Origin: Branchiostoma belcheri
Taxonomy: Eukaryota
NCBI RefSeq assembly: GCF_001625305.1
Contig: NW_017803490.1
Coordinates: forward strand, 8,155,655 to 8,219,654
Reading direction: 5' to 3'
Length of the DNA: 64,000 nucleotides
Shown one piece after another: positions 1-36,930 of this stretch. Below the pieces are notes generated by a model. The model did not search any database. It was given only the letters and a program-made list of their open reading frames with translations, and had not been told where the DNA came from. A program made the translations under genes and the position numbers. Positions within the stretch are counted from its first letter, which is position 1. Each line of letters begins with the position of its first letter.

Positions 1-2307
1 GATTCTCAGAACCTCTGCATGCCCACTCCAAGCTGCCCACCACATTGGAGTCCTTCCATCACCATCTTCCTTGTACACGTCAGCCCAAGCATATAGCAAG
101 AAGCTCACGACCTCTGCATGTCCCCTCTCAGCTGCTACCGATAGTGGAGTCCTTCCCATGCGGTCTGTCTCGTCCTTGTTCACCACTGTTATTGGTAAGT
201 GGCTCAACCACTCTACACTTCCAATCTCAGCTGCCAAATGCAGTAAAGTCTTCCCCATACCACTAGCTCTCTCTCTGGATCTTGCAGTGTTTTCCCCTGC
301 TCCAGGGTCTGCCCCTTTCTGCAGCAGGAGTTTGACGATGTTAGAATGCCCGCCCGTCACTGCATCACAGAATGGTGTTTCTCCCTCGGAGTTCTCTGTG
401 TTCACCTGTACACCTGCCTGTAGCAGGGTCTTCACCTTGTCTTCATCACCTGTCCAGGCTGTTATCCTTAACAGCGCATCTCTCCAGGCGTCTCTCAGTT
501 CCTCGTAGGTTTGTGTGGATGTCTCGTTGTCTTCAGGAACATCTGTGTCTGTCTTGTGTCCCTCTCCTAACACTTTATCTGTCTGTGTTGTCTGCTCACA
601 AGTTTCTGACAACACATCTTCTTCAAGCTGTTCCATTGACCGGACATCCCCCTGCGAAGGGCCATGGTACCCAATTTTCTCATATTCTGTAAGTCTGTAA
701 GTTACCTGGCCACTGTCCAGTGCTTTGACACATTCGTCAGTTTCTGAAGTTGGCCACATTTTGGCAATTTTCAGCCCTTTCCTTAGAACTTTGTGTCGTT
801 TGAAAACTTTGATAATAGCGGCCCTGCTCAAGTCTTTGTTAGCGTTGTAGAATTCTGAAAGATCCTCCATTGCCTTCTGTTCTAATTGCTGAGCACCTGA
901 CACAAGCTCCTCCTTAACAGAGTCTTCGATCTTTAGGTAGGAGAACCTCATACGCATTTCTTTAGCAAGCTTTCGGCTTTGTACAGCATTTAGTGCGAAT
1001 TCTAAACGTCTTACACCACGTCTTGCAGAAGATTTCACTTTCCTTACAGTATCAGTTGGTTTCGCACTTTTCTCGTTTTCATCTCTCCAGTCGTCTCTCA
1101 GTTCCTCGTAGGTTTGTGTAGACTCCTCGGAGTCTTCACCTGTTTCCTGCATTTCTGACAACACAAAGACGTCCATAGTTTCCTCCACTATCTCTGACAC
1201 TTCTTCTTCAAGCTCTTCCATTGTCAGAATTTTCACTTCTAAGGGACAGTTGAGCCCAATGTTTTCAAACCCTTTCTTTACGTCAGCAGCCAGCTTGCCA
1301 CTTTCTTGGTCCCTGTTTAATTCTCTGATGCTTTCGTCTGTTTTGGGAAACATCTGTACACAGATTGAAGATGACCAATAGTCACCTAATTCGTTATCTT
1401 TATTATAATGTTTCTCGATAATTTCCACGCACAGGTTGAGACTATCATCGTCAAGTTTGCTCCCATCAGATGTTTCAATGATAATGTAGATGCATTTCTC
1501 ACCCCTTTGATTTGCACGCTGCATGCTTTTAACAGAACATTTTACAAATTTCAAGTCACTTGAATAGTCTTTTCTTTTATGACGCTTTCCTTTTTTTGTT
1601 TTCTTTACCGTTTTCGTCTTGATTTTCTTGCCTTTAGATGATTCAGATGCCTGTGATGAGCCTGCGGCAGATGGAACTTGAACAAAAAATGTCGTATTAT
1701 CCAACGTGCTTTGCTTTGGTTGTGGGCTTAGAGATCTCAAGCTACCAGTTGAAGTACCTGATGATGGTGGGGTCTCAGCAGGCTGACTCTTATCGGTGGT
1801 ATTTTGTGCTAGACCTGAACTAGAGACCTCAATAGATGTACCTTGTAGTGACAGCTCCTTGACATCTACATTTAGACAGTCACTCTCTTCTGTAGAGTCT
1901 TGTTTAGGCGGTGAACTCTGGACTCCTGCAGAAATATTCGATAATGAAGGCGTCACCGTCTCAACAGCTTGACTGTTTTCAGTGATGTCTGTGTTGAGTT
2001 GTGTATCCTGTAGGTCTGGGTACATGGCTCTCAGTCTATCCACGAGGTCTTGCCTTTTTATCCTCTTTAAAGCATGCAGTAGCTCCTGTACTGTCGCCTG
2101 CTTTCCTTCTTGTTGCCTCCATTTTTCCAGCATGGTACGGTTCCGCCATATCAGGTGAGTTGTCGGACTCTTAGTAACCATTTCCTCAACAATATTGTAC
2201 TTCAGTCCTAATTTAAAGCCAAGATCGATCCAGTCATCCCCCAGATTTGACTGTACGATGTCAAAAGCTGTGTCCAACTCTGCTCCTACATCACCTCCAA
2301 CCGCCAT
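1..2307 (-). CDS. Gene A. A death domain (DD) / ankyrin-repeat (ANK) protein. Single exon, 3' end truncated by the window edge. It appears to be a mosaic carrying both subtypes of the middle module. It continues through the acidic tract into ANK repeats.
   Basis: The ATG at 2307 sits in the same 'caagATGGCGG' context as paralogues B, D and E. The reverse-strand translation begins MAVGGDVGAELDTAFDIVQSNLGDDWIDLGFKLGLKYN. Nucleotide similarity to genes B and D (1100-2300) and to gene C (700-1100) is high. The ANK consensus 'TPL..AA..GH..VV..L...GAD' is seen in the reverse translation of 1-500. The ORF track does not list it because no stop lies inside the window. The frame was checked only by eye. 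Confidence 0.55.
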   Translation of the reverse strand, partial: MAVGGDVGAELDTAFDIVQSNLGDDWIDLGFKLGLKYNIVEEMVTKSPTTHLIWRNRTMLEKWRQQEGKQATVQELLHALKRIKRQDLVDRLRAMYPDLQDTQLNTDITENSQAVETVTPSLSNISAGVQSSPPKQDSTEESDCLNVDVKELSLQGTSIEVSSSGLAQNTTDKSQPAETPPSSGTSTGSLRSLSPQPKQSTLDNTTFFVQVPSAAGSSQASESSKGKKIKTKTVKKTKKGKRHKRKDYSSDLKFVKCSVKSMQRANQRGEKCIYIIIETSDGSKLDDDSLNLCVEIIEKHYNKDNELGDYWSSSICVQMFPKTDESIRELNRDQESGKLAADVKKGFENIGLNCPLEVKILTMEELEEEVSEIVEETMDVFVLSEMQETGEDSEESTQTYEELRDDWRDENEKSAKPTDTVRKVKSSARRGVRRLEFALNAVQSRKLAKEMRMRFSYLKIEDSVKEELVSGAQQLEQKAMEDLSEFYNANKDLSRAAIIKVFKRHKVLRKGLKIAKMWPTSETDECVKALDSGQVTYRLTEYEKIGYHGPSQGDVRSMEQLEEDVLSETCEQTTQTDKVLGEGHKTDTDVPEDNETSTQTYEELRDAWRDALLRITAWTGDEDKVKTLLQAGVQVNTENSEGETPFCDAVTGGHSNIVKLLLQKGADPGAGENTARSRERASGMGKTLLHLAAEIGSVEWLSHLPITVVNKDETDRMGRTPLSVAAERGHAEVVSFLLYAWADVYKEDGDGRTPMWWAAWSGHAEVLRI

Positions 2308-3779
2308 CTTGCTGTGGGTTGGTAGTGAAATATATTCCTACTTGTTAGCTCAGTTTAGGTTGTTTGTCCAGTAAAAGCCACCACTGAGAGCCGGCCCTGA
2401 GTTAAAGATTGCCATTTAGCCTTTTCTACGTTCTGAAAAAGCACCTCAATTACAAAAGACCCCTGTCTAATTCGAAACAAATCACTCACACACAGCCAAG
2501 ACTGAATGGTTTAGAAAACATCACACCTGCCACTACTGATAAAGAAAACATTTCTTCAAAGATTTATGTTTTTATAAATATTGTAAGATCTACTTTGAGA
2601 CTCATAATACCGCTACTAACCTCACAACTGACAAATTAAAACACGATAAACTTAAATAGATATATTCATGCAGCATCGATAATTTCTTATGTAGGTACAC
2701 CTTCGATAATCATGTGGGTATTCAAGACTTTCACATGGAGTCTTTGATCACCACACATTCTACAATGATGAAGACAAATGTTTATGGTCTCTTGTTAGGG
2801 CAGGTGAGAGTCTTGTGGGTAGAGCAAATAACCACTGGCCACAAATGATATGGAACAGTGTGTGTCCAGTTTCCCTGTTTTTTTTTGTGTCCTGAGATAT
2901 TTCGGGCCCTCTCAACCATGCAACAGCATGTTGTAAAGAGGTATATATTGACGTTCAAGATTCTTCCCGGCAGCGTTATGTGACCTACTTCCTTGTAGCA
3001 TTTTGACAGTGTCTTAGAAGTATGATAGTCTGTTATAAAAATGCCCAGAAAACATACATCATGAATGGCAATCTACAGTACGGATAGTACGTAACTGGGA
3101 AAATAATGGGTTGCTCTTTTGGCAAAACACGTTTTGCTCTATATGAGTCAAGATCACCAAGAAGTCTTAAAACATTACAAGTGTACGAAATCATTATACA
3201 GAAGCAAAGTTTAACATTTTGATCTACAAATGTAGGTCCTTGGATGCTATGCTTTCTTAGTTACCTTCTTAGTAATCTTAGCATTTATAGAGCAAAAGAG
3301 TCCAAAGCTAGGTTATGCCAATGTTTGAGCCTGTTGGAAGTGGATACAGATGGTTATCTGTTGCCAGGCAAGTGCGCCACTGGTGCTAACAAAGACGTGT
3401 TGAGGTCTGAATGGCAAGCTACATTGGAGACATGTACAAAAGCGCGTGCTACAATGGTGAAGGCTTCCTTAAAGCTGCCCGATTGTATAAGGAAACGTAA
3501 CAAAATGAGAATTTAAGGCTCGAATCCTTTTAAGTAGAAGTTTTTCATTTAAACTAACAGATGAGCTTTTGATAATAAGGGAATGCTTTTGATTGTATCA
3601 AGAGCCCACAACTGACCAGTTTAAATGGTCTGGGCCTTGCTGTTAGTGCGTTGGGTTCGTGAGCTGGTGACCTGGGTTTGAGGATACAAAAACATACGCA
3701 TGTTGGACAAAGGAGCTTTTTAACCTCCTAGGTTGGACTGACATGGTCTTAACTTTGTGTGGAAGTTTTTGCGGACGTC

Positions 3780-4100
3780 TTTGCCATTACATTGGGGCTG
3801 ATTACATTGCCTAACTCGGTAACTCTACTGGTTACAGAGTAAGGCAGCAGGGAGAAGGTTAACCTTTAGCACACTGATGTAGTGATTTGGCTACCATTTC
3901 TCTACTGGTTACAGAGTTAGGCAGAAGGGAGGTTAACCTTTAGCACACTGAAGTTACTACTGCCATTTGGTGACGTCTTTGCCAGTACATTGGGGCTGAT
4001 AACATTGCCTAACTCTGTACTGGTCTCAGAGTTAGGCAGCAGGTAGAAGATTAACCATTATAGCACACTTAAGTAGCCATTTGGGGACAACCAAGGTGCA
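3780..4100 (-). repeat. Tandemly amplified SINE-tail repeat. About 60-bp units ('ctactggttacagagttaggcagcagggagaaggttaacctttagcacactgaagtagccatttgg'), roughly 5 copies.
   Basis: Visible periodicity. Homologous to 7380-7860. Confidence 0.7.
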
Positions 4101-4199
4101 CTAGCCAGTAATTTAACAGTACTTTAATCCTTCTTGTTACATTTGTGTGTTTCTTGTATAAAGATACACACAAGATTATATATCTTTGTCCCTCTTAGT

Positions 4200-4238
<39 letters not shown>

Positions 4239-4943
4239 TGAGTTGTCCCTCTTACATCATATAAACTATAGCTAGGCAAGGAGAAACCAAATATTTGCAC
4301 TAAACAAACTTTGCGGTTAACCGTACCACGTTAGCTTTCACTGAGTGTCTAGATTTACTTCTTTACAAAAGACCGAGGTCACTGACCTGTACATAACAAA
4401 GAAATAAGTCACTAAAGTCTTGAAACTAAATAAGTCAAGGTGTCCCGATACCTTTGTCGCGATAACAGGTGATATGCCCAGGGGTATCGATGCCTTTTAG
4501 TGTTTTTGTGTAGTAAGTGAAAAGTCATTGGAGGCAAGCATTAATTTCCGAAATCAAAATTTAATATTAAGTTTTTCTAGTTGTACATAAAGTGCTTGAT
4601 ATGATTCCTGTAAGACTTTGCTCTTCACTCTGGTCAGGGGCAACAAAAAATTGTCCCCAAATGTATAGCCTCTACCAGACTCCTTTAAAGGCTCAATGAA
4701 TAGTGAAAATTAGCCTAAAAGGGGATATCATTGGCCAGAGGCCTTTTAGGTCAAAGGAGTCTGGTGGAGACTAACAAATGCAAGTCTCTGACATTGTTTC
4801 TCATTGACATGTGCAACAGGACTAAATCTGCCAACTAATATTATCGTTCAGTTGTAGTATTCCATTCTGGAATCCATTTAATGCAGAAATTGAGTAAGTC
4901 TCAAACTCCAGCATAGTTCAAATATCAGAGTGTTAGTACCAGG

Positions 4944-7028
4944 TTATATCTTTTTAACCCGGGCTTCCTCAATCACCTTTGCAACATCACTGTGTTTTGT
5001 TTCTACGGCAGCTTGATATGGAGTCTTGCTACTTTTGTCTGGTATAGATATATCTGCCCCTGCTTCGATAAGTACTTTCACAACTTCCATGTTTCCATAG
5101 AATGCTGCTATCCACAATGGTGTTTTTTTATCCAAGTCTGTCTTGTTCAAGTCTGCCCCCGCTTGGGTCAAGATGCTCACAATCTCTGCATGTCCTCTGT
5201 CAGCAGCAAACCACAGTGGAGTCATTCCCATATCATCTACCTTGTTTAAGTCTGCTCCCGCTTGCACCAAGATGCTCACGACCTCTGCATGTCCTTTCTC
5301 AGCCGCCACTGATAGTGGAGTCGTTCCCTCCTTGTCTGCCTTGTTCAAGTCAGCCCCCGCTTGAATCAAGGTTCTCATGGTCTCTGCGTGTCCTTGCTCA
5401 GCTGCTAAAAACAAGGCAGTTGTTCCCCTGCTGTTCGTCCTGTTTAGATCCGCATCTGCTTCTGTCAGGATGCTCACCATCTCTGCATTACCACTCTGAG
5501 CCGCCAACTGCAGTACAGACTTCCCCATACCACTTTCTGTGTTTGCACTGTCTGTGTTTGCCCCTGCTCCAGGGTCTGCCCCTTTCTGCAGCAGGAGTTT
5601 GACGATGCTAGAATGTCCGCCCCTCATTGCATCCCAGAGTGGTGTTTCTCCCTCAGAGTTCTCTGTGTTCACCTGTACACCTGCCTGTAGCAAGGTCTTC
5701 ACCTTGTCTTCATCACCTGTCCAGGCTGTTATCCTTAACAGCGCATCTCTCCAGGTGTCTCTCAGTTCCTCGTAGGTTTGTGTAGACTCTTCACCTGTTT
5801 CCTGCGTTTGTGTACACTCCTCAGAGTGTTCACCTGTTTCCTTCATTTCTGACAACACAAAGGCATCCATAGCTTCCTCCACTATCTCTGCCACCTCTTC
5901 TTCAAGCTGTTCTGTTGACAGAACGTCCACCTCTAAGGGACAGTTGAGCCCAATGTTCTCAAACTCTGCCTGTAAGTCAGCTGCCAGCTTGCCACTTTCT
6001 TGGTAATCATTTAATTCACTGATGCTTTCATCAGTCTTGGGAAACATCTGTATACAAATTGAAGATGACCACATTTTGCCAATTTCGAAACCTTTACATT
6101 GTTTAATGATGAATTCCTTGCACAAGTCTAGACTACTATCATCAATTTGTAAAATGGTATCGAAAATTTCCTCCCGAGCAGACGATTCTACCACAAGATA
6201 GTAGCATTTCCTAAGCATTTCCCTTGCAAGTTGCATGCTACTAACTGCATTCAGTACGAATTTCGGGTCGCTCGAATGTCTGTCACTTTGTTGACTCTGT
6301 TTTCCTTTAGTGATCTTCTTTGTTTTCTTAACTGTTTTCTTCTTGACTTTCTTGTTTTCTTTGCCTATAGGTGATTCAGATGCCTGCGATGAGCTTGTGG
6401 CAGTAGATGGAACTGATGTGGTGTTTTCCAAAGCGCTTTCCTTTCGCTTCTGGCTTAGGACACCAGTTGAAGTATCTGATAATGGTGGGGTCTCAACAGA
6501 CTGACTGTTATCGGTGGTATTTTGTGCTAGACCTGAACTAGAGACCTCATTAGACATACCTGATAGTGACAGTTTCTTCAAATCTACATTTAGACAGTCA
6601 CTCTCTTCTGCAGAGTCATGTTTAGGCTGTGAACTCTGGACAGAAATATCCGAAAATGGAGGGGCCACTGTCTCAACATCTTGACTTTGTGCAATAGTTT
6701 CTGTGTTGAGCTGTGAAGCATCATCCTGTAGATCTTGGTATAGCTTGTCTTTCAGCCTATCCACAAGGTCTTGTCTTTTTATCTCCTTTAAAGCGGCCAG
6801 TAGTTTCACCACTGTCGCCTGCTTTCCTTCTTGTTGCCTCCACTTTTCCAGCATCGTACGGTTCCGCCATATCAGATGAATTGTCTGACTCTTAGTAACC
6901 ATTTCCTCGACAATGTTGTACTTCAGTCCTAATTTAAAGCCAAGATCGATCCAGTCATCCCCCAGATTTGACTGTACAATGTCAAAAGCTGCGTCCAACT
7001 CTGCTCCTACATCACCTCCAACCGCCAT
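4944..7028 (-). CDS. Gene B. A 694-aa single-exon protein: N-terminal death domain, S/T-rich and lysine-rich linker, conserved unknown module, acidic tract, then about 7-8 C-terminal ankyrin repeats.
   Basis: Uninterrupted ORF in the six-frame track. DD-like N-terminus (…LDAAFDIVQSNLGDDWIDLGFKLGLKYNIVEEMV…IHLIWRNRTMLEKWRQQEGKQATVVKLLAALKEIKRQDLVDRLKDK). ANK repeats (GETPLWDAMRGGHSSIVKLLLQKGADPG…, TPLSVAAEKGHAEVVSILVQAGADLNK…). Confidence 0.85.
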   Translation of the reverse strand: MAVGGDVGAELDAAFDIVQSNLGDDWIDLGFKLGLKYNIVEEMVTKSQTIHLIWRNRTMLEKWRQQEGKQATVVKLLAALKEIKRQDLVDRLKDKLYQDLQDDASQLNTETIAQSQDVETVAPPFSDISVQSSQPKHDSAEESDCLNVDLKKLSLSGMSNEVSSSGLAQNTTDNSQSVETPPLSDTSTGVLSQKRKESALENTTSVPSTATSSSQASESPIGKENKKVKKKTVKKTKKITKGKQSQQSDRHSSDPKFVLNAVSSMQLAREMLRKCYYLVVESSAREEIFDTILQIDDSSLDLCKEFIIKQCKGFEIGKMWSSSICIQMFPKTDESISELNDYQESGKLAADLQAEFENIGLNCPLEVDVLSTEQLEEEVAEIVEEAMDAFVLSEMKETGEHSEECTQTQETGEESTQTYEELRDTWRDALLRITAWTGDEDKVKTLLQAGVQVNTENSEGETPLWDAMRGGHSSIVKLLLQKGADPGAGANTDSANTESGMGKSVLQLAAQSGNAEMVSILTEADADLNRTNSRGTTALFLAAEQGHAETMRTLIQAGADLNKADKEGTTPLSVAAEKGHAEVVSILVQAGADLNKVDDMGMTPLWFAADRGHAEIVSILTQAGADLNKTDLDKKTPLWIAAFYGNMEVVKVLIEAGADISIPDKSSKTPYQAAVETKHSDVAKVIEEARVKKI

Positions 7029-7379
7029 CTTGCTGTAGTGTGGTATAGAAGCGTAAAATGGTAGCTAATAATTGCCCTTTGTCCAGCTGCATGTGACACA
7101 TTCCTTTGGGCAAAAACATGTCAATCATGTGAGTTGAAGTTGTTTGGTTTATAGTTACGGTAAACTGAGTTTACTGTGCCCTTCTTGATGTATTTACACA
7201 AGACTCTTTAAACTTTGCCGACTGCACGTCACTCACATACTTGCACAGATAGCGTTTTCAGAGCACGTCAGCAGAACGTACTGCGTCTGCGCGAAACCCT
7301 GATTTTTGGTTGGATGTTTGGTCAACGTTGCACCAGAATTTCGTCTGTTGCAGACGGGGGTCCCACCAATTCTCCATTG

Positions 7380-7860
7380 GTTTCAGGGTTAGGCAGCAGG
7401 GAGAAGGTTAACCTTTAGCACACTGAAGTAGCCATTTGGGGACCAACTCTCTACTGGTTATAGAGTTAGGCAGCAGGGAGAAGGTTAACCTTTAGTACAC
7501 TAATGTAGCCATTTGGCGACCAATTCTCTATTGGTTACAGGGTTAGGCAGCAGGGAGAAAAGGTTAACTTTTAGCACACTGAAGTAGCCAATTGGGGACC
7601 AACTCTCTACTGGTTACAGAGTTAGGCAGCAGGGACAAGATTAACCATTATAGCACACTGAAGTAGCCATTTGGAGACCAATTCTACTGGTTACAGAGCT
7701 AGGCAGCATCGGGCAGGATTCGAACCCTGAACCTCTGGGGTCTGAATTTGAGCCGAACACTCTACCATTACGCCACACGACCCCACTGATGGGAGAAGGT
7801 TAACCTTAAGCACACTGAAGTAGCCATTTGGGGACAACCAAGGTGCACTAGCCAGTAATT
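7380..7860 (-). mobile_element. tRNA-derived SINE (tRNA-like head at about 7700-7790, minus strand) with a tandemly amplified 60-bp tail repeat, about 6 units.
   Basis: The minus strand reads GGGGTCGTGTGGCGTAATGGTAGAGTG…GGTTCGAATCCTGCCCGATGCTGCC, with tRNA-like D and TΨC regions. The 60-bp repeats flank it. Confidence 0.65.
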
Positions 7861-8585
7861 TAACAGTACGTGAATCCTTCTTGTTAAATTTCTGGTGAAA
7901 TCTTGTGTGTTACTTGTATAAAGATACACACAAGATTTTATATATCTTTGTTCCTCTTACAGTTAGAGAGAGGGAGAGTGAGTTGTCCCTCTTACAGTAT
8001 ATAAACTAGGCAAGGAGAAACCAAATATTTGCACTAAACACACTTTGCGGTTAACCGTGCCATGTCTAAGCTTTTAATGAGTGTCTCAAATTACTTCTTC
8101 ACAAAAAACCGAGGTCATTGGCCTGAACATAACAAACAAATAAGTCATTTAAGTCTTGAAAGTAAAGAAGTCAGGGTATCCCGATACCTTTGTCTCGGTA
8201 ACAGGTGATATGCCCAGGGGTATCGAGGCCTTTTTAGTGTTTTTGTCTAGTAGAGTAAGTGAAAAGTCATTGGAGGCAAGCATTAATTTCTGAAATCAAA
8301 ATTTAATGGTAAGCTTTTCTAGTTGTACATAATGTGCTCAATTTCATGATTTCTGTGACTCGTTTGAGACTTTGCTCTTCGCTCTGAAATTACCCAAAAC
8401 ATTGACAAGCAAGAAGACTAAATGTCCGATTCTGTAGATCATCAAATCGCAATTCATAAGTGAATGGCCTGCCAACTAATTTACCTTACAGATGTAGTAT
8501 TCCATTCCGCAATGCAGATATCAATTAATTTTCAAACTACAGCATTGTCCAATTCTCTGTTAGTATCAGTTTCCTTCATGTCTTT

Positions 8586-11450
8586 TTAACTATGGCCATC
8601 CTCAATTACCTTTGCAACATCACTGTGTCCCATTTCGATGGCAACTTGATACGGAGTCTTTCCAGTTTTGTCTGGTTTAGAAATACCTGCCCCTGCTTCA
8701 ATAAGTACTTTCACAACTTCCATATTTCCATGGTGTGCTGCTCTCCACAATGGCGTCTTTTGATCCCTGTTTGCCTTGTTCAAGTCTGCGCCCGCTTGTG
8801 TCAGGATGCTCACAATCTCAGCATGTCCTTTCTCAGCCGCCACCCACAGTGGCGTTCTCCCCATATCATCTGCCTTGTTCAATTCGGCCCCCGCTTGTAT
8901 CAAGACGCTCGCGACCTCTGCATGTCCACTCCAAGCCACCACTGATAGGGGAGTCGTTCCCTCATCATCTGCCTTGTTCAAGTCAGCCCCTGCATGTGCC
9001 AAGATGCTCACGACCTCTGCATGTCCATTCTCAGCTGCCGCCCACAGTGGAGCCCTTCCCATGCTGTTTGCTTTGTTCAATTCGGCCCCCGCTTGTATCA
9101 AGATGCTCACAATTTCTGCATGTCCATTCAGAGCTGCCACCAATAGTGGAGTCCTCCTCTTATCATCAGCGTTGTTCAAGTCTGCCCCTGCTTGTGTCAA
9201 GATGCTCACAATCTCTGCATGTCCTCTCTTAGCCGCCACCCACAGTGGAGTCACTCCTAAGACATCTGCCTTGTCCAAGTCCGCCCCTGCTTGTACCAAG
9301 ATGCTCACGACCTCTACATGTCCACTCCAAGCTGCCTCCCACAGTGGAGTCACTCCTAAGACATCAGCCTTGTTCAAGTCAGCCCCCTCTTGTGCCAACA
9401 TGCTCACGACCTCCGCATGCCCATTCTCAGCTGCCCACCACAGTGGAGTCCTTTTATCATCATCGGCCTTGTTCAAGTCTGCGCTCGCTTGTATCAAGAT
9501 CCTTACAATCTCGGCATGTCCTTTCTCAGCCGCTGCACACAGTGTAGTCCTTCTCTCATTGTCTGCCTTGTTCACATCAGCCCCTGCCTGTGTCAAGTTC
9601 CTCACAATCTCGACATGTCCCCTCTCAGCCGCCACCCTCAGTGGAGTCTCTCCCCTATCGTCTGCCTTGTTCAAATCTGCCCCTGCTTGTATCAAGATGC
9701 TCACAATCTCTGCACATCCCTTCAAAGCCGCCACCAATAGCGGAGTCCCTACCTCATTATCTGCCTTGTTCAAGTCTGCCCCCGCTTGTATCAAGATGCT
9801 CACGATCTCGGCATTACCACTCTGAGCTGCCAACCACAGTGGAGTTTTCCCCATACGACTTGCCAGATTTGCAACTGCTGGGTCTGCCCCTTTCTGCAGC
9901 AGAAGTCTAACAATGTTAGGATGTCCGCCCCTCACTGCATCCCAGAGTGGAGTTTCTCCCTCGGAGTTCTGTGTGTTCACCTGTAGACCTGCCTGTAGCA
10001 GGGTCTTCACCTTGTCTTCATCACCTGTCCAGGCTGTGATCCTTAACAGCGCATCTCTCCAGGCGTCTCTCAGTTCATCGTAGCTTTGTGACGATTCTTC
10101 ATCTGTTTCCTGCGTTTGTGTAGACTCCACGGAGTCTTCATCTGTTTTCTGCGTTTGTGTAGACTCCACGGAGTCTTCATCTGTTTCCTGCGTTTGTGTA
10201 GACTCCACGGAGTCTTCAGCTGTTTCCTTTGTTTCTGACAACACAAAAACGTCCATAGCTTCCTCCACTATCTCTGCCACCTCTTCTTTGAGCTGTTCCA
10301 TTGACCGGACATCCCCCTGCAAAGGGCCACTGAACCCAATTTTCTCATACTCTGTCTGTAAGTCTGCGGTGAGCTGGCCACTCTCTAGGTATTCAATCAG
10401 TGCTTTGATATATTCGTCAGTTTTTGGGAAGATTTGGACATAGATTGAAGACGGCCACATTTTGGCAATTTTAAGCCCTTTTCGTAAAACTTTGTGTTGT
10501 TTGAACACTTTGATAATAGCGGCTCTGCTCAAGTCTTTGTTAGCATTGTAGAATTGTGAAACGTCTTCCATGGCTTTCTTCTCTAAGTGCTGATGAGCAC
10601 CTGACACAAGTCCCTCCTTGAGACAGCTTTGAATCTTTAGATAGCAACACTTTATACGGATTTCTTTAGCAAGCTGTTGGCTTCGTACAGCATTTAGTGC
10701 GAACTCTAAACGTTTCACATCAAGTCTTGCACTTGACGTATACCTGGAGCTTGATTTTCCTTTCTTTCCTTCCTTCTTACCTGCTTTGGTACTGTTCTTG
10801 CTTTCTTTGTCTTCGTCTCTTGAGGTCGTCTTGACTCCTTTGATAGTACTTTCCTTGTTTTCTCTGTCTCTATCTCTTGAGGTCGTCTTGACTCCTTTGA
10901 TAGTACTTTCCTTGTTTTCCCTGTCTTTATCTCTTGAGGTCGTCTTGACTCCTTTGATAGTACTTTCCTTGTTTTCCCTGTCTTTATCTCTTGAGGTCGT
11001 CTTGACTCCTTTGATAGTACTTTCCTTGTTTTCCCTGTCTTTATCTCTTGAGGTCGTCTTGACTCCTTTGATAGTACTTTCCTTGTTTTCCCTGTCTTTA
11101 TCTCTTGAGGATGTCTTGACTTCTTGCTCTTCGCCCAGCTGTAAAGAAGACAGACCCTTAAGGCAAAGATTCTCTTGTACTCTGTCCACAAGGTCTCGCC
11201 TTCCTGTCCTCTTCAAAGCTGTCAGCAATTTCTCCAGTGTTGCCCTTTTCCCACTTACTCGCCTCCATTTTTCCAGCACAGTACGGCTTCGCCTCACTAG
11301 ATTTACCTCCCTCTCATTTCGGATTTCCTGTATGACGTTGTGCTTCAGTCCTAGCTTTAAGGCAAGCCGTATCCAGTCCTTCCCCAGGTCTGGCTGTAGA
11401 ATGTCAAAAGCTGCGACCAACTCTGTCCCTGTGTCACCTCCAGCCGCCAT
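8586..11450 (-). CDS. Gene C. A DD-ANK paralogue of about 955 aa, with internal coding minisatellites and about 16-17 ankyrin repeats. The track ORF extends upstream to 11645 in frame, but the homologous start is MAAGGDTGTELVAAFD at 11450.
   Basis: Track ORF 8586..11645. In paralogues B, D and E the start aligns with the internal Met 'RGKMAAGGDTG', in the same nucleotide context 'ccgccatcttgc'. The C-terminal half is a long ANK array (…TPLWLAAQSGNAEIVSILIQAGADLNKAD… repeated). Confidence 0.8.
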   Translation of the reverse strand: MAAGGDTGTELVAAFDILQPDLGKDWIRLALKLGLKHNVIQEIRNEREVNLVRRSRTVLEKWRRVSGKRATLEKLLTALKRTGRRDLVDRVQENLCLKGLSSLQLGEEQEVKTSSRDKDRENKESTIKGVKTTSRDKDRENKESTIKGVKTTSRDKDRENKESTIKGVKTTSRDKDRENKESTIKGVKTTSRDRDRENKESTIKGVKTTSRDEDKESKNSTKAGKKEGKKGKSSSRYTSSARLDVKRLEFALNAVRSQQLAKEIRIKCCYLKIQSCLKEGLVSGAHQHLEKKAMEDVSQFYNANKDLSRAAIIKVFKQHKVLRKGLKIAKMWPSSIYVQIFPKTDEYIKALIEYLESGQLTADLQTEYEKIGFSGPLQGDVRSMEQLKEEVAEIVEEAMDVFVLSETKETAEDSVESTQTQETDEDSVESTQTQKTDEDSVESTQTQETDEESSQSYDELRDAWRDALLRITAWTGDEDKVKTLLQAGLQVNTQNSEGETPLWDAVRGGHPNIVRLLLQKGADPAVANLASRMGKTPLWLAAQSGNAEIVSILIQAGADLNKADNEVGTPLLVAALKGCAEIVSILIQAGADLNKADDRGETPLRVAAERGHVEIVRNLTQAGADVNKADNERRTTLCAAAEKGHAEIVRILIQASADLNKADDDKRTPLWWAAENGHAEVVSMLAQEGADLNKADVLGVTPLWEAAWSGHVEVVSILVQAGADLDKADVLGVTPLWVAAKRGHAEIVSILTQAGADLNNADDKRRTPLLVAALNGHAEIVSILIQAGAELNKANSMGRAPLWAAAENGHAEVVSILAHAGADLNKADDEGTTPLSVVAWSGHAEVASVLIQAGAELNKADDMGRTPLWVAAEKGHAEIVSILTQAGADLNKANRDQKTPLWRAAHHGNMEVVKVLIEAGAGISKPDKTGKTPYQVAIEMGHSDVAKVIEDGHS
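10088..10225 (-). repeat. In-frame 36-nt coding repeat x about 3.5 inside gene C, encoding the acidic 'EDSVESTQTQETD' units.
   Basis: 'ctgcgtttgtgtagactccacggagtcttcatctgttt' is repeated. The peptide is ETAEDSVESTQTQETDEDSVESTQTQKTDEDSVESTQTQETDEES. Confidence 0.9.
10790..11110 (-). repeat. In-frame coding minisatellite inside gene C. A 60-nt unit x about 6 encodes (K)TTSRDKDRENKESTIKGV.
   Basis: Exact 60-nt periodicity 'tctcttgaggtcgtcttgactcctttgatagtactttccttgttttccctgtctttatc'. The track ORF shows the peptide repeat. Confidence 0.9.
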
Positions 11451-11556
11451 CTTGCCTCGGTGGGGTAGACTAAGTGAAATATATCCCCTGGTGACGCACT
11501 CGTCTGTTGAGTTGAAGTTGTTTGGCCAGTAAAATAACGCCGCTGTTTTGTTACTG

Positions 11557-11568
11557 TGTATAAATAAG
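11557..11568 (-). promoter_or_regulatory. TATA-like element (TGTATAAATAAG) about 110 bp upstream of the gene C start codon, within the conserved 5' flank.
   Basis: TATAAATA motif. The same motif, with surrounding sequence conserved, lies upstream of gene D. Confidence 0.35.
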
Positions 11569-11962
11569 CACCTCTCAATTACAAAAGACCCTGTGCCCTT
11601 CAAAACAGTAGGGTTGACCCTAAACCTAACCTTATCGCTGACCAAGACTCAGGTAAGGTGAGTAGACGTTCTTTTGTCTTGTCTGTACAGTAGCTATAGA
11701 AGATATAGAAGACTGGTAACCAGACCCATGTGAGCTCAGAGCCTTCGGCGCTGGTAGTGTTTTGGGCCGCAAAACCGTAGTGTTTCGGCCCCGCGCGTCG
11801 GGGGTAGATTTTTATGTTTACCTTAAACAGCATGCATTTGCTTTCAAATGTTATTTTTCTACAACGATGTAGTTGCAGACAGTTTAGGTTTGTTCGCTCA
11901 CAATGCGGTCGGTGCGCAGTAGAAGACTGGGGACATGTCTGTGGGTATAGCTCGCCTGTGCT

Positions 11963-12205
11963 TAGGTCGGGGGTAGGAAAATCGTAGCCTCTACCAGGCA
12001 CCGCGGATCGCTTGAAAAATATTAGAAATTGGCCGAAATAAAGGAATAATACCAGGGGAGTTAGCCGGCCAGAGAAGCTCAACATGCGACAAATTGGAGC
12101 TTCTCTGGCCAGCTAACTCCCCTGGTATTATTCCTTTATTTCGGCCAATTTCTACTATTTTTCCAGCGATCCGCGGTGCCTGGTAGAGGCTAGGAAAGTC
12201 GCCCT
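11963..12205. mobile_element. MITE-like hairpin. A near-perfect inverted repeat with about 95-bp arms (11980-12080 and 12097-12190), only a few mismatches, and a 16-bp loop.
   Basis: The left arm 'cctctaccaggcaccgcggatcgcttgaaaaatattagaaattggccgaaataaaggaataataccaggggagttagccggccagagaagctc' is the reverse complement of the right arm. The 'ggccaatttctactattt' core is shared with the 46660-47080 family. Confidence 0.8.
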
Positions 12206-12833
12206 CCAGCCAACCCTAAGGTAATTGGTACCCAGGCTAAGTGGCTTACACCAGACGTTTAGTGAAATATTTACCGTAAACAAACTTTACGGTTAACCGT
12301 GCCATGTTAGACTTTACTGAGTGTCTAAATTTACAAACTAACAAAAGACCGAGGTCACTGGCCTGTACATAACAGATTAATTAACAAGTCACTTGGAAGT
12401 AAGTACGTCAATGAGTCGCGGTAACAGGTGATATACCCAGGGGTATCGAGTCCTTTTTGGAAATTTGTCTAGTAAGTGAAAAGTCATTCGAGGTAAGCAT
12501 CTAGATGTACATCTAGTTTTTCTAGCTGTACATCATTCGCAGCCCAGTACAAACTGTGCTTAATATCATGATTTCTGTGACTTCGCTCTTCACTCTGGTC
12601 AGGAGCAAGAAAGAATTGACCCCAAATGTAAGTTTCTTACATTATATTTCATTGACATGTGCAAGAAGACTAGGTAAATCTTCAATTCAGTAAATTATCA
12701 ATTACTGCTGCAATTCATAAATGAAACAATTGGCAACTAAATGTTATCCTCTTGTAGTGTGCCATTCTGCAACTCATTTAATGCAGATATCAAGTAATTT
12801 TCTAACTCCAGTATAGTCTCTGTTAGTATCAGG

Positions 12834-15065
12834 TTATGTATTTTTAATTAAGCATTCCTCAATCACCTTAGCAACATCACTGTGTCCCATTTCTATGGCA
12901 GCTTGATAGGGAGTTTTGCCAGTTTTGTCTGGTATAGAAACATCTGCCCCCGCTTCAATAAGTACTTTCACAGCTTCCATGTTCCCACAGTGTGCAGCTG
13001 TCCACAATGGTGTCTGTTCATCCTTGTTTGATTTGTTCAGGTCCGCCCCCGCTTTTATCAAGATGCTCACAATGACTACACCTTCACTTTCAACCACCAC
13101 CCACAGTGGCGTCCTTCCCATAATGTCTGCCTTGTTCAAGTCCGCCCCAGCTCGTATCAAGATGCTCACGATCTCGGCATGTTTACTCCACGCTGCCACC
13201 CAGAGTGGGGTCTCTTCCATGCTGTTTGCCTGGTCCAAGTCCGCCCCCGCTTGTGTCAGGATGCTCACAATCTCTGCACTTCCTCTCTCAGCCGCCACCC
13301 ATAGTGCAGTTCTTCCCTCATCATCTGCATTGTTCAAGTCTGCCCCCGCTTGTATCAAGATGCCAACAACCTCTGCATGTTTCCTCTTAGCCGCCACCCA
13401 CAGCGGAGTCCTTCCCAGAACACCTGCTGTGTCCAAGTCAGCCCCTGCTTGTATCAAGATGCTCACGACCTCTGCATGTCCATTCTCAGCTGCCGCCCAC
13501 AGTGGAGTCCTCCCCATGCTGTTTGCCTTGTTCAAGTCCGCCCCCGCTTGTATCAAGGTGCTCACCATCTCTGCATTTCCACTCTCAGCTGCAACGAAAA
13601 GTGCAGTTCTCCCCTCATCATCTGCTTTGTCCAAGTCCGCCTCTGCTTGTGTCAGCATGCCCACAATCTCTGTATTACCACTCTGAGCTGCCAGCTGCAG
13701 TAGAGTCTGCCCAATAACACTTGCTGTGTTTGCCCCCGCTCCAGGGTCTGCCCATTTCTGCAGCAGGAGTTTGACAATGTTAGGATGTCCTCCCCTCACT
13801 GCATCCCAGAGCGGTGTTTCTCCCTCGGAGTTCTGTGTGTTCACCTGTACACCTGCCTGTAGCAGGGTCTTCACCTTGTCTTCATCACCTGTCCAGGCTG
13901 TGATCCTTAACAGCGCATCTCTCCAGGCGTCTCTCAGGTGCTCGTAGGTTTGTGTAGATTCTTCGCCTGTTTCCTGCGTTTGTGTAGACTCCTCAGAGTC
14001 GTCACATTTTTCCTGCGTTTCTGACAACACAAACATGTCCATAGCTTCCTCCACTATCTCTTCCACTTCTTCTTCAAGCTCCTCCATTGTCAAAACGTCC
14101 ACCTCTAAGGGACAGTTGAGCCCAATGTTCTCAAACTCTGCCTGTAAGTCTGCGGCTAGCTCGCCACTTTCTTGGTACCTGTTTAATTCGCTGATGCTTT
14201 CGTCAGTTTTGGGAAACATCTGTACACAGATTGAAGATGACCACATTTCACCAATTTCGAAATCTTTGCAAAGTTTAAGGATGATTTCCTTGCACAAGTC
14301 TAGTCTACCACCATCGATTTGTGATAGGGCCTCTAACAGTTCTTCCCGAACAGATGATTTTACCACAAGATAGTAGCACTCCTTACGCTTTTGCTTTGCA
14401 AGCTGCATACTACTAACTGCTTTCAGTACAAATTTCGGGTCGCTCGAATGTCTGTGACTTTGTTGACTCTGTTTTCCTTTAGTGGCTTTTTTTGTTTTCT
14501 TACCAGTTTTCTTCTTGACTTTCTTGTTTTCTTTGCCTATCGATGATTCAGATGCCTGCGATGAGCTTGTGGCAGTAGACGGCAGTGTGGTATATTCAAA
14601 CTTGCCTTGCTTTGATCGTGGGCTAGAGACACTCTCTTCTGTGGAGTGTTGTTTAGGCGGTGAACTCGAGAATCCTGTTGAAATATCCGATAATGGTGGG
14701 GACACCGTCTCAACGACTCGACACTTTTCAGTGACGTCTGTGTTGAGCTGTGGATCGGCATCCCGTAGGTCTGGGTACTTGTCTTTCAGTCTGTCCACGA
14801 GGTCTTGTCTTTTTATCTTCTGTAAAGCGTGCAGAAGATCCTGTACTGTCGCCTGCTTTCCTTCTTGTTGCCTCCATTTTTCCAGCATGGTACGGTTCCG
14901 CCATATCAGGTGAATTGTCGGACTCCTATTAACCATTTCCTCGACAACGTTATACTTCAGTCCTAATGCTAAGCCTAGGTCGATCCAGTCATCCCCCAGG
15001 TCTGACTGTATAGTGTCAAAAGCTGCCTTCAACTCTGTCTCTGCGTTAAAACCAACCGCTGCCAT
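12834..15065 (-). CDS. Gene D. A 743-aa DD-ANK paralogue: DD, linker, unknown module, acidic tract, then about 9 ankyrin repeats.
   Basis: Uninterrupted track ORF. N-terminus MAAVGFNAETELKAAFDTIQSDLGDDWIDLGLALGLKYNVVEEMV. ANK repeats (RTPLWAAAENGHAEVVSILIQAGADLD…). Confidence 0.85.
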   Translation of the reverse strand: MAAVGFNAETELKAAFDTIQSDLGDDWIDLGLALGLKYNVVEEMVNRSPTIHLIWRNRTMLEKWRQQEGKQATVQDLLHALQKIKRQDLVDRLKDKYPDLRDADPQLNTDVTEKCRVVETVSPPLSDISTGFSSSPPKQHSTEESVSSPRSKQGKFEYTTLPSTATSSSQASESSIGKENKKVKKKTGKKTKKATKGKQSQQSHRHSSDPKFVLKAVSSMQLAKQKRKECYYLVVKSSVREELLEALSQIDGGRLDLCKEIILKLCKDFEIGEMWSSSICVQMFPKTDESISELNRYQESGELAADLQAEFENIGLNCPLEVDVLTMEELEEEVEEIVEEAMDMFVLSETQEKCDDSEESTQTQETGEESTQTYEHLRDAWRDALLRITAWTGDEDKVKTLLQAGVQVNTQNSEGETPLWDAVRGGHPNIVKLLLQKWADPGAGANTASVIGQTLLQLAAQSGNTEIVGMLTQAEADLDKADDEGRTALFVAAESGNAEMVSTLIQAGADLNKANSMGRTPLWAAAENGHAEVVSILIQAGADLDTAGVLGRTPLWVAAKRKHAEVVGILIQAGADLNNADDEGRTALWVAAERGSAEIVSILTQAGADLDQANSMEETPLWVAAWSKHAEIVSILIRAGADLNKADIMGRTPLWVVVESEGVVIVSILIKAGADLNKSNKDEQTPLWTAAHCGNMEAVKVLIEAGADVSIPDKTGKTPYQAAIEMGHSDVAKVIEECLIKNT

Positions 15066-15164
15066 CTTGCTGTAGTGTGGTGGACGCTGTGAAATATATT
15101 CCTCACTTTTCTGTTGAATTGAAGTTGTTTTCCCAGTAAAATAACACTGCAGCTTTGTTACTGA

Positions 15165-15175
15165 CTATAAATAAG
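15165..15175 (-). promoter_or_regulatory. TATA-like element (CTATAAATAAG) about 100 bp upstream of the gene D start codon, within the conserved 5' flank.
   Basis: TATAAATA motif in a 5' flank that is about 85% identical to gene C's. Confidence 0.35.
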
Positions 15176-15584
15176 CACTTCTCAATCACAAAAACCCCAG
15201 GCCTGAGACCTTCAAAACAATAGGGTTGACCCTAAACCTAACCCTATCGCTCACATGATTGAGATTGAGTTACAACTGCCAATTGAGTACTGTTTTGGCT
15301 TGCAGAGTTCACCCGTGTTGGTACATGTCAGATATAAAATTCATCAAATTGTCAATTACAGCACAATGCATTTACCCAGATCTTCACCTGCACAGTATTC
15401 ATTTATTTAATAGTATGAAGATTCAAGATGTCAAACCTGGGACCAGACTGTAAGGTTTGAACCACTCACAAGTGCACCAGGCAGGACTCCTACTCTTTTC
15501 GATAAGTCTGGTGGGGTGTGGCTCTCCCAAACAGCCGACCAGTTCATTTGACCTCCCATCCCAGGGACCTTCCTAACCGAAGCG

Positions 15585-16079: not shown

Positions 16080-16645
16080 TGGATTTTAATCAAAGCCGGT
16101 GTAATGTAGCCAGTTGCCGCCGCACCGCATGCCTGTGAAGCTGGTGTACATGTTACGCCAAATGGCAGTTATACCGGCTATACAGATACAAAGCCGCACA
16201 GATAAAAAGTACAGTATGAAATGGCATTGATATGAAACCTTTTAAGTTGTAACCCAATATTTTGTGTCAAATTCTCCAGCCACTCTCAGAATTTCTATTT
16301 TTAATGAGAGGTAAGTTTCTTTTACACTATGTTGCCTTTTTTATGACAAGATAACTGCATGTTTATGTAGGAAATTTTTTCCTAGAAGTATCGCAGAGTG
16401 GAACTCGCTGTCACCAAGTACAGTAGGGGCATTGTCATTAGATTGCTTTAAACAATGTCTAGAGCTAGAAGTTCAAGGGTTAGGTGTAACAAGTCGACCG
16501 GTGAAATGTAGCCAGCTGCCGCCACGCCGTGTGCCTGAGAAGCTGGTGTGTTACGCCGAAGGGCGGTTATACCGGCTATACAGATACAGAAGCTGGTGTG
16601 TTACGCCGAAAGGCGGTTATACCGGCTATACAGATACAGAAAATG
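16080..16645. repeat. Dispersed repeat family containing a tandem subunit of about 50 bp ('ttacgccgaa.ggcggttataccggctatacagatacagaagctggtgtg'). Copies lie at 16080-16200 and 16495-16645, inverted copies at 53040-53225, and a fragment at 36490-36545.
   Basis: Seen directly. Confidence 0.65.
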
Positions 16646-16974
16646 TTGTGTCAATGAACTACTAATACCCTGGCAGAACTGAACAGTAAACTTAACAGTA
16701 AACGTAACTTTAATAATAATAATATACTTCACTTTTCATGGAAACTACTGCACCACTTTAACAGAGTGAACATTCGGTGTCCCCAGATGAACTTTACCAG
16801 CTTGACCTGCGACCTTTCTCTGGTAGATCCCAGACTGGGACTGCTGCAAAGGCTGCTGGGACTGGGAAGGCATTCTGGGATACCGCGCAGCTGTGGCATG
16901 CCCAATAGTTTGCTGTGGATGGAAAACAAGATATTACATAAATTTTGCAAAAATTAAAAATACATGTATCACAT

Positions 16975-17087
16975 TCACAATATACACACACCATATCACA
17001 TACACACACACACATATCACACACACACACACACACACATATCACACACACACACACACATATCACACACACACACACACACACACA

Positions 17088-17127
<40 letters not shown>

Positions 17128-17140
17128 ACACAGACAATTT
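16975..17140. repeat. (CA)n / (CACACATAT)n microsatellite
   Basis: Seen directly. Confidence 0.95.
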
Positions 17141-20169: not shown

Positions 20170-20500
20170 TCAATATATAGAAGTCCAAATACTACGTAAG
20201 TGTTAATGGGCGTAAAATCCCCTCCTAGCTCTGATTGGCGGATGTTCTTCCGGCAATGAGATATAGGAGGTTACCATGTAATCTTATCTTTCAAATAGCT
20301 CTGTTAGCATTTAATTTAACATTTTAATGTCTTGGGGTGGTGGGACTACGGTGCACAGATATGTCAACTTTGTATATTTAAATGTTAATTGTACCTTTTT
20401 TGTTGTGTGGCGCTGTTAATATAAGTTGTTAACTTGAGTGCATCGTCACACTGTCCTTGTTATGTCTTTATGTTTTGATGAATGAAAAAAAAATATATTG
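20170..20500 (+). repeat. Dispersed repeat of about 330 bp. An inverted copy lies at 36600-36930, about 95% identical.
   Basis: 'gtccaaatactacgtaagtgttaatgggcg…ctctgattggcggatgttcttccggcaatgagatataggaggttaccatgtaatcttatctt…' matches the reverse complement of 36600-36930 almost base for base. Confidence 0.8.
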
Positions 20501-22018: not shown

Positions 22019-22153
22019 TGAGTGAGTTAGTGAGTGAGTGAGTGAGTGAGTGAGTGAGTGAGTGAGTGAGGGAGTGAGTGGGTGAGAGTGATTGAGTGAG
22101 TGTGAGTGAGTGAGTGAGTGAGTGAGTGAGTGAGTGAGTGAGTGAGTGAGTGA
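22019..22153. repeat. (GAGT)n microsatellite
   Basis: Seen directly. Confidence 0.95.
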
Positions 22154-22384
22154 GTGAGCAACTGCGATAGACTTGACACCAGGTTAGAGTCCCTTACCAG
22201 TATACCCCTCTTGAGGTCCAGTGCCCAGTTGTCCAGATGTGCCTCTATCCTGGCCACAATATTGTGGTACATCAAGGCTTAAACTCCTGTCATTAAAGAC
22301 CTACTGGGAAACCTAGCTGTATTCGGCAGGGAAGAGAACCCATCCCAACTACAATAGACTGGACACCAGGTTAGAGTCCCTTAC

Positions 22385-23408: not shown

Positions 23409-23585
23409 ATGGATGCAGCTTTCAAGAACTCACAAAACCACCTTGGTGAGGACTGGTTACACTTGGCTTTATATCTGGAACTGGGCTTTGTGAACATACA
23501 GCAAATCCGGAGAGAGAAAACCTTGACATGGCAAGTGGTGTCATTTTACTGGGCAAACAACTTCAACCCAACAGAGGAGTGAGTC
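23409..23585 (+). other. Upstream ORF (58 codons) in the gene E leader. It encodes a degenerate death-domain N-terminal fragment (MDAAFKNSQNHLGEDWLHLALYLELGFVNIQQIRREKT…), then the conserved 'FYWANNFNPTEE' leader, then TGA.
   Basis: Read directly from the sequence. It resembles the DD start 'ELDAAFDILQSELGEEWTQLALELGLKYN' of the main ORF, 43 nt downstream. Confidence 0.4.
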
Positions 23586-23627
23586 AGCAGGGAATATATT
23601 TCACTTAGTCTACAAGACTACGGCAAG

Positions 23628-35929: not shown

Positions 35930-36560
35930 GCCCCTCAGTTAGGGTTAGAATAAGGATCAGGCACGGTTCTGGATATTCTCTGCGTGTCCAAAAACGTAGA
36001 TTCGCCCCAGGCGCGGTTGTGGATAGTCTCTATCCGTTGGCACCGCGAGGGCCACAGGTAATGCGGGCGTGGTCGTGTTGTATACAGAACCGATGTTTCA
36101 GCACCAGGGACAGGGGAACTTTTCCATACTTTCCGTTAAACTCAGAACTGTGCCTATGTAGTTCTATGCCTGAATGGGATAGGATAGGGATTAAGATACG
36201 GTTCTGGATAGGGCCACAGGTAAGCTATAAGGTAAGACTGTGGTCATGGTTTATCAACAACCGATATTTCAGCACTAGGGACAGGGGCAGTTTTCCATTC
36301 TTTCCGCTTGATACTATCTATTGTATTCAGAACCGTGCCTCTCTAGACCCAATTCTGAATGGGTCAGGGTTAAAATCAGGCATGGTTCTGGATAATCTCC
36401 GCGTATACAAGAACGTAAGTTTGCACCAGGAACCGTTCTTGATAAGCGTGGACTATCCAGAACCATGCATGAGAATGGTTCTCGATAGAGCACGGTTCTG
36501 TATCTGTATAGCCGATATAACTGCCCTTCTGCGTAACCCACCAGTTTCCGGATACAAAAA
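35930..36560. repeat. Tandem array of about 190 bp, roughly 3 copies, of the 'ggcacggttctggata…' repeat family. Dispersed copies lie at 47270-47320, 47570-47640, 50570-50900 and 42740-42800.
   Basis: Repeated 'aggcacggttctggata…cgtag.tt.gccccagg…' blocks. Confidence 0.6.
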
Positions 36561-36599
36561 GGTAAAAACACAGAAAATTAGATATCGTCATCTTTCATT

Positions 36600-36930
36600 C
36601 GTTAATCTTTTATGTCTGTTGAAGTTTTTTTTTTTATTCATCAAAACATAAAGACATAACAAGGACAGTGTGACGCTGCACTCAAGTTAACAACTTATAT
36701 TAACAGCGCCACACACAAAAAGGTACAATTAACGTTTAAATATACAAAGTTGACATGTGCGCCGTAGTCCCACCACCCGAAGACATTAAAATATTAAATT
36801 AATGCTAACAGAGCTATTTGTAAGATAAGATTACATGGTAACCTCCTATATCTCATTGGCGGAAAAACATCCGCCAATCAGAGCTAGGAGGAGAATTTAG
36901 GCCCATTAACACTTACGTAGTATTTGGACT
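36600..36930 (-). repeat. Inverted copy of the dispersed repeat at 20170-20500
   Basis: See the feature at 20170-20500. Confidence 0.8.

Follow-up and report, generated by a model that had tools for sequence, protein, structure and literature searches.

TRADD-N domains have undergone lineage-specific expansions in sponges, cnidarians, bivalves, echinoderms, hemichordates, and amphioxus, the last with 46-71 copies of the DEDD2 clade and 13-129 copies of the NCOA6 clade (Kaur, Iyer, Burroughs, Aravind, eLife 2021, PMC8195603; hereafter Kaur et al., 2021). In the typical design, a constant Death-like domain and TRADD-N precede a variable, fast-evolving C-terminus that often consists of ankyrin repeats or β-propellers. 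TRADD-N is placed at the constant/variable junction, and the design recurs among immune and apoptosis proteins of invertebrates, amphioxus included (Kaur et al., 2021). Here we describe a cluster of five genes, A-E, in a 64,000-nucleotide (nt) stretch of the Branchiostoma belcheri genome (the window; assembly GCF_001625305.1, contig NW_017803490.1, positions 8,155,655-8,219,654, forward strand). The encoded proteins combine an N-terminal death domain (DD), a central module that is very probably a divergent TRADD-N domain, and a variable array of ankyrin (ANK) repeats. The cluster is a new amphioxus-specific family of the already described Death-like/TRADD-N/variable-repeat class, and its DD-first, ANK-last order therefore represents no new principle. 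A first-pass annotation, made from the sequence alone, had judged this order unusual against ankyrins, NF-kB p100/p105, and ANKDD1; that was the wrong comparison set, which missed the TRADD-N class, where the same design occurs (Kaur et al., 2021). Its suggestion that the family may be undescribed holds for the family itself, which is uncharacterised, unnamed, and partly mis-annotated, but not for the architecture class.

Each of the five genes is a single exon with one unbroken open reading frame (ORF), as seen in the ORF listing and by direct translation. Pfam detects Death (PF00531) at residues ~21-95 of all five proteins (E 5e-11 to 4e-15; 43-56 bits, with a curated cut-off of 22.6 bits) and assigns the C-terminal half to ANK families (Ank/Ank_2, E 1e-22 to 1e-105). 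The nearest solved death domains by sequence are those of FADD (E 1.3e-5), ankyrin-3 (E 3e-5), and RIPK1. All copies share the order DD, TRADD-N, variable ANK, and an S/K-rich linker, an acidic tract STQTQET(G/D)E, and the motif YEELRDxWRDALLRITAWTGDEDKVKTLLQAGVQVN are all present in the translations. The first-pass annotation had read the single exons, the N-terminal DD, the intervening elements, and the C-terminal repeats correctly.

The ANK arrays have a periodicity of 99 nt (33-residue repeats) and are consensus-like. Gene B encodes, in order, a DD, an S/K linker, TRADD-N, the acidic tract, a junction of 216 nt (72 codons, comprising the end of the hinge and the first two ANK units), and ~8 ANK units. 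Gene D encodes a DD, linker, TRADD-N, junction, and ~11 ANK units, and the array of gene E likewise has ~11. In gene C, the DD is followed by a linker built from a 57-nt repeat, a long-loop TRADD-N, an acidic tract built from a 39-nt repeat, the junction, and ~15 ANK units. The linker (10789-11125) holds 5.9 copies of its unit, 95% identical, which encodes the 19-residue repeat TSRDKDRENKESTIKGVKT; the acidic tract (10096-10228) holds 3.4 copies of its unit, 96% identical, which encodes DSVESTQTQETDE. These in-frame tandem repeats are young. The gene C frame is still open upstream as far as 11645. Lysine-rich patches KKVKKKTGKKTKK, for example KKVKKKTGKKTKKATK, occur in the DD/TRADD-N linker of A, B, D, and E (residues ~180-250). 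They resemble nuclear localisation signals, which we offer as a lead only; DEDD and DEDD2 are nuclear or nucleolar.

The central module, left in the first pass as a conserved unknown, can now be assigned to TRADD-N with considerable confidence. An AlphaFold model of the ~145-residue module (alignment A3; predicted local distance difference test, pLDDT, 79) has the order α0-β1-α1-β2-β3-α2-β4-α3 with two kinked helices, and the five models obtained from a deeper alignment (A5) agree with one another (pLDDT 81-84, predicted template modelling score 0.76). The predicted fold is an RRM-like two-layer β-α-β-β-α-β sandwich with kinked helices, as in the TRADD-N superfamily. Its best structural match is TRADD-N (1f2h), with a sequence identity to TRADD of ~16%. 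Direct comparison by hhalign with the TRADD-N reference alignment of Kaur et al. (2021; supplement 16 of PMC8195603) is weak (P 0.002-0.006), in a register that is structurally correct.

When the module profile was run exhaustively with HMMER against 1.84 billion representative proteins, it gave nine strong and 16 weak matches, the latter (E 1.3e-8 to 1e-3) to small proteins of ~140 residues, one of them from the coral Desmophyllum pertusum (KAJ7383751.1). The small proteins P0061-P0076 (80-340 amino acids (aa), unannotated) carry a hydrophobic stretch at the N-terminus and, at the C-terminus, a TRADD-N-like domain of the pattern GSIxVELxCxT...FExGKVKxRLEEEFxKIG. None has a Pfam match over cut-off; one small intermediate reaches E 0.002 with Pfam TRADD_N, under the cut-off. 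It is because these proteins bridge the profiles that the amphioxus module can be linked to TRADD-N. They align convincingly to the second half of the module, and a joint profile of module and small proteins matches the DEDD2+TRADD clade alignment with Prob 96% and P 2.3e-9, classical TRADD with 86%, and bacterial TRADD-N with 72%. In controls, P stayed above 0.1 with reversed templates, and the highest score among 40 column-shuffled templates was 18.5, versus 50.65 for the match itself. S72, the sole invariant column of the 20-sequence module alignment, aligns with the serine of the TRADD-N signature 'GS', the conserved interaction residue of these domains (Kaur et al., 2021). The module also sits between the constant DD and the variable ANK array, as TRADD-N does in the described class.

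An alternative reading, which we consider improbable, is that the module belongs to a different RRM/ferredoxin-like family or is a degenerate guanylate-kinase-like fragment, the proteins then forming a DD-X-ANK family unlinked to the TRADD-N class. The guanylate-kinase candidate, which came from a PDB match to DLG1 (E 0.14), was rejected on the RRM-like predicted fold. Membership in the NCOA6 clade was likewise rejected (profile P 0.03-0.3), and the module is therefore grouped with the DEDD2/TRADD-like and bacterial-like clades.

All nine strong matches to the module profile have the same DD/ANK make-up, and those with a named source are all from Branchiostoma. The exhaustive search gave these nine only, and the family is therefore lineage-specific and confined to amphioxus, in agreement with the lineage-specific expansion proposed at the outset. 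Word-indexed searches with the module alignment or the ANK-free head gave none or two matches and missed known relatives; the family size was taken from the exhaustive HMMER search. In the databases, members are named 'hypothetical', 'Ankyrin-2', or 'ANKRD50-like'. The best database relative of D is Bbelb_286050 [Branchiostoma belcheri], a hypothetical protein with 91% identity. In a second B. belcheri assembly, GCA_025402995.1, the D orthologue (locus L001) is annotated as a single 2226-nt exon; L001 and the window are syntenic, with 87-92% identity in nucleotides. The neighbours of the D orthologue there are another DD-ANK gene and a gene pairing Death with Fibrinogen_C (L001 1-197), and the latter shows that death-domain genes with differing C-terminal parts are clustered in the wider region.

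The RefSeq protein XP_019622303.1 (P0059; 'ankyrin repeat domain-containing protein 50-like', 929 aa) consists of an exact internal part of B joined to A. It begins at an internal methionine of B (MFPKTDES...), reaches near the C-terminus of B, and jumps to the same motif in A, whose C-terminus, missing from the window, it contains. This entry is a chimeric model of the neighbouring genes A and B, which are separate units.

Genes A-D lie in tandem, head-to-tail, on the minus strand, with E on the plus strand. Stop-to-stop distances are 3.64 and 4.25 kb, and ATG-to-ATG distances 4.7, 4.4, and 3.6 kb, much as in the first-pass description of four minus-strand paralogues ~3.6-4.3 kb apart. The copies are 75-95% alike across kilobases, which excludes chance. 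Self-BLAST and alignments reveal a 3' flank of 570-900 bp common to B, C, and D: 4042-4596 matches 7791-8338 (B versus C, 84% identity), 4289-4665 matches 12265-12630 (B versus D, 76% identity), and the 100-120 bp directly past the stop codons are alike (4825/4828-4943 with 12728-12833 and 8469-8585). The common flank is probably 3' untranslated region plus downstream sequence; ATTAAA stands at 4565 (B) and 8307 (C), in aligned positions. By the same methods it was not found beside gene E, whose 3' flank differs. At the other end, a 5' leader of ~70-110 bp, which starts at TTTTACTGG, is conserved in all five genes, and the conserved stretch extends to ~190 bp between C and D. Because both flanks are common to the copies, whole gene units, flanks included, were duplicated in tandem.

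That whole units had been duplicated was also the first-pass view, whose dimensions need some adjustment. The 3' flank, put at ~600 bp, is indeed shared by B, C, and D, the B/C part being somewhat longer; the leader, put at ~200 bp with a TATA-like box, is present in all five genes at ~70-110 bp, but the TATTTATA box occurs in C (11559-11566) and D (15166-15173) only. It lies 25-32 bp upstream of the conserved leader start, a placement that would fit transcription starting where the conserved leader begins.

Pairwise Nei-Gojobori ratios of nonsynonymous to synonymous divergence (dN/dS) are 0.2-0.8 across the DD, module, and ANK regions except for the A/E module, at 1.12, and the coding sequences are under purifying, fairly relaxed selection. 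Synonymous divergence (dS) is distributed as a mosaic. Between B and E, it is 0.27 in the DD and 0.20 in the module but reaches 1.8 in the ANK array; between C and the others, it is 1.25-1.47 in the module and ~0.37-0.40 in the ANK array. The junction is the most uniform part of the genes, with 87-95% nucleotide identity and a dS of 0.06-0.29 in every pair, and dS in its flanks is higher for most gene pairs.

Two genes display the exchange directly. Gene E joins a D-like 5' half (23538-24947), which ends inside the junction, to an ANK half 81% identical to P0005, which lies next to the D orthologue in L001; the breakpoints lie at ~23538 and 24947. The D-type leader of E starts where a relic P0005/P0006-type death-domain start, MDAAFKNSQNHLGEDWLHLALYLELGFVNIQQIRREK, is cut off, the inserted D-like segment having severed it. 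The relic is fused in frame to this leader, and use of the old promoter would give a 57-codon upstream ORF. Gene A comprises a B/D-type DD, linker, and first module, a junction cut at YEELRDDWRD, a C-type linker tail, a second C-type module without strand β3, an intact junction, and an ANK array. Genes A and E are recombinants whose paralogous sources exchanged halves.

The variation in ANK copy number, the mosaic dS, and the recombinant genes A and E, all read from the sequences, indicate that segments were duplicated in tandem and then underwent unequal crossing-over and gene conversion, with exchange probably concentrated at the junction. One may go further and propose a diversity-generating sensor locus, in which the 216-nt junction is a dedicated recombination/gene-conversion hinge that time and again re-pairs signalling heads with different ANK arrays, in the manner of genes A and E. 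We regard this proposal as unlikely. If true, amphioxus would have intracellular receptors of the Death-TRADD-N-ANK type whose repertoire evolves rapidly and varies between individuals, comparable to the NLR clusters of plants.

The reading we favour, and consider likely, is that of a lineage-specific B. belcheri tandem cluster encoding cytoplasmic adaptors or sensors, built from a DD, a K/S linker, a DEDD2/TRADD-like TRADD-N, an acidic hinge, and ANK repeats, and diversified by exchange. By analogy with the described class, we infer a putative role as immune/apoptosis adaptors. The constant head (DD plus TRADD-N) would form the signalling end, its FADD/RIPK1-like DD recruiting the protein into homotypic DD assemblies, and the similarity of this domain to those of FADD, ankyrin-3, and RIPK1 fits such recruitment. 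TRADD-N, at the constant/variable boundary, may use its conserved serine face to bind a partner or to work as a switch; in TRADD, the serine-bearing face of the TRADD-N sheet binds the MATH domain of TRAF2. The ANK array (~8 to 15 units of differing type) would be the variable recognition end for a host or pathogen ligand. Diversity across the cluster would stem from unequal crossing-over and gene conversion, with the junction as the preferred exchange point.

Several points weigh against this reading. MATH/TRAF is no universal partner of TRADD-N (Kaur et al., 2021, PMC8195603). Pfam TRADD_N gives no match to the module, and Pfam at E<=10 returned noise only. The second module of gene A may be decaying, and nucleotide-level constraint could also lower dS in the junction. 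Expression, interaction, and phenotype data for these genes were sought and none were found; the supplements of a B. belcheri poly(I:C) RNA-seq paper contain no match to them.

The last of these points would also suit an array whose copies, as retrocopies or young pseudogenes, are non-functional or decaying and play no part at the protein level. Such a reading could draw further on the intronless coding sequences, the duplicated and partly deleted module of gene A, the patchwork of gene E with its upstream relic exon, and the solely chimeric RefSeq model at this locus. Yet all five ORFs (694-954 codons) are intact, most dN/dS values for the DD, module, and ANK regions fall at 0.2-0.7, and the D orthologue in the second assembly retains 91% identity in amino acids; we find this reading quite improbable. 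With regard to retrocopies, the duplicated flanks (C/D ~190 bp upstream, 570-900 bp at the 3' side) point to segmental tandem duplication and speak against repeated retroposition. The flank alignments brought neither a poly(A) tail nor a target-site duplication to notice, though no search aimed at these was made. The founder copy may be of retrogene origin.

That the proteins are instead a cytoskeletal or scaffolding ankyrin family is exceedingly improbable: the ANK arrays are most like ankyrin-1/2 repeats, the DD also resembles that of ankyrin-3, and 'Ankyrin-2' and 'ANKRD50-like' are among the database names, but these names stem from generic ANK-repeat similarity, Pfam found no ZU5, UPA, or RHD in the five proteins, spectrin-binding domains are absent, the DD is N-terminal, a TRADD-N module is present, and the five proteins are far shorter than ankyrins.

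Coordinates of the genes and their parts are collected in Table 1.

Table 1. Features of the five-gene cluster, in window coordinates.
Feature	Gene	Position	Strand	Remarks
Gene	A	1-2307	-	769+ aa; ATG at 2307-2305; 3' end cut by window start
Gene	B	4944-7028	-	694 aa
Gene	C	8586-11450	-	954 aa counted from MAAGG
Gene	D	12834-15065	-	743 aa
Gene	E	23628-25856	+	742 aa
Death domain	A	2020-2304	-	
Death domain	B	6744-7025	-	
Death domain	C	11172-11447	-	
Death domain	D	14775-15065	-	Pfam Death over cut-off; tblastn
Death domain	E	23631-23915	+	
TRADD-N-like module	A	1153-1566 and 613-999	-	
TRADD-N-like module	B	5847-6278	-	
TRADD-N-like module	C	10230-10703	-	
TRADD-N-like module	D	14016-14450	-	Structure model and profile comparison
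TRADD-N-like module	E	24249-24689	+	
Junction	A	295-507	-	
Junction	B	5559-5774	-	
Junction	C	9876-10082	-	
Junction	D	13731-13946	-	YE(E/H)LRDxWRDALLRITAWTGDEDK...GADP; first two ANK units
Junction	E	24759-24974	+	
Variable ANK array	B	4944-5558	-	Repeat number and type differ among genes
Variable ANK array	C	8586-9875	-	As for B
Variable ANK array	D	12834-13730	-	99-nt periodicity
Variable ANK array	E	24975-25856	+	As for B
3' flank	B	4042-4943	-	Homologous to 7791-8585 (C) and 12265-12833 (D)
5' leader	A	2308-2376	-	
5' leader	B	7029-~7140	-	
5' leader	C	11451-11566	-	
5' leader	D	15066-15173	-	Conserved block starts with TTTTACTGG at 15141
5' leader	E	23538-23627	+	
Relic death-domain start	Directly upstream of E	23409-23525	+	P0005/P0006-type, MDAAFKNSQNHLGEDWLHLALYLELGFVNIQQIRREK, 37 codons, ATG 23409

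Other features of the window lie between or outside these genes. Between B and C, the interval 7365-7790 holds a 77-nt tandem repeat (4.4 copies, 86%) and, adjoining it on the minus strand, a tRNA-like segment with a GGTTCGAATCC T-loop motif at 7716-7726. ARAGORN makes no tRNA call for this segment, a tRNA scan of the window found 0 genes, and the segment is probably a relic of a tRNA-derived short interspersed nuclear element. Outside the gene array, two dispersed inverted repeat pairs, 20175-20493 versus 36626-36937 (94% identity) and 16384-16650 versus 53086-53355 (80% identity), probably represent copies of transposable elements. Adjoining one inverted-repeat copy is an ORF of 245 aa (35914-36651) that has no Pfam match, and Pfam found nothing over cut-offs in ten other ORFs at 15-64 kb. 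Plus-strand ORFs at 8776-9825, 12916-13686, and 5102-5602 (166-349 aa) were rejected as genes; they run antisense to ANK arrays and are a codon-composition artefact of the repeat. Microsatellites include (AC)n with ~75 copies at 16984-17136, (TGAG)n with 36 copies at 22019-22158, and a (CT)n run at ~4090-4140 in the 3' flank of gene B.

The cluster reveals no new kind of system. The analysis assigns a TRADD-N domain, at the confidence given above, and an established architectural class to amphioxus genes labelled 'hypothetical', 'Ankyrin-2', or 'ANKRD50-like', and it flags a chimeric RefSeq model for correction. The TRADD-N expansions of amphioxus gain a DD-headed, ankyrin-tailed family. Within one compact locus, head/tail exchange between paralogues can be seen directly in the relic exon, the duplicated module of gene A, and the homogenised junction, which makes the locus handy for testing how invertebrate immune/apoptosis repertoires diversify and which partners TRADD-N has outside vertebrates.

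In the part of the Kaur et al. (2021) catalogue considered here, the amphioxus architectures include Death+TRADDN-DEDD2+Coiled-coil+β-propeller, +GT4, +RING+NYN, and +STAND; 'Death+TRADDN-DEDD2+Ankyrin' and XP_019622303 are absent among the entries listed there. As far as these entries go, the family was apparently missed because its TRADD-N is divergent. The cluster shares with the catalogued class an N-terminal Death-like domain, TRADD-N at the constant/variable boundary, a variable C-terminal array that is often ankyrin, and lineage-specific expansion in amphioxus, and for both, recombination is proposed as a source of diversification. It differs in having a bona fide DD without a DED, a long K/S-rich linker between DD and TRADD-N, a TRADD-N too divergent for Pfam, and a compact tandem arrangement of single-exon units.

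Vertebrate TRADD likewise has one TRADD-N and one DD, and the conserved serine of the module corresponds to its TRAF2-contact serine; in contrast to the cluster, TRADD places TRADD-N before the DD, lacks ankyrin repeats, and is a single-copy vertebrate gene. The (CARD+)DED+TRADD-N+Ankyrin proteins of sponges and cnidarians follow the same three-part plan, with a death-fold head and an ankyrin tail on either side of TRADD-N, but their head is a DED/CARD rather than a DD, the sponge TRADD-N belongs to the NCOA6 clade, and they come from other phyla and are not orthologous. Ankyrins, NF-kB p100/p105, ANKDD1, and DAPK1 share the pairing of ANK repeats with a death domain, but there the repeats come before the DD and are accompanied by ZU5-UPA, RHD, or kinase modules, and TRADD-N is absent.

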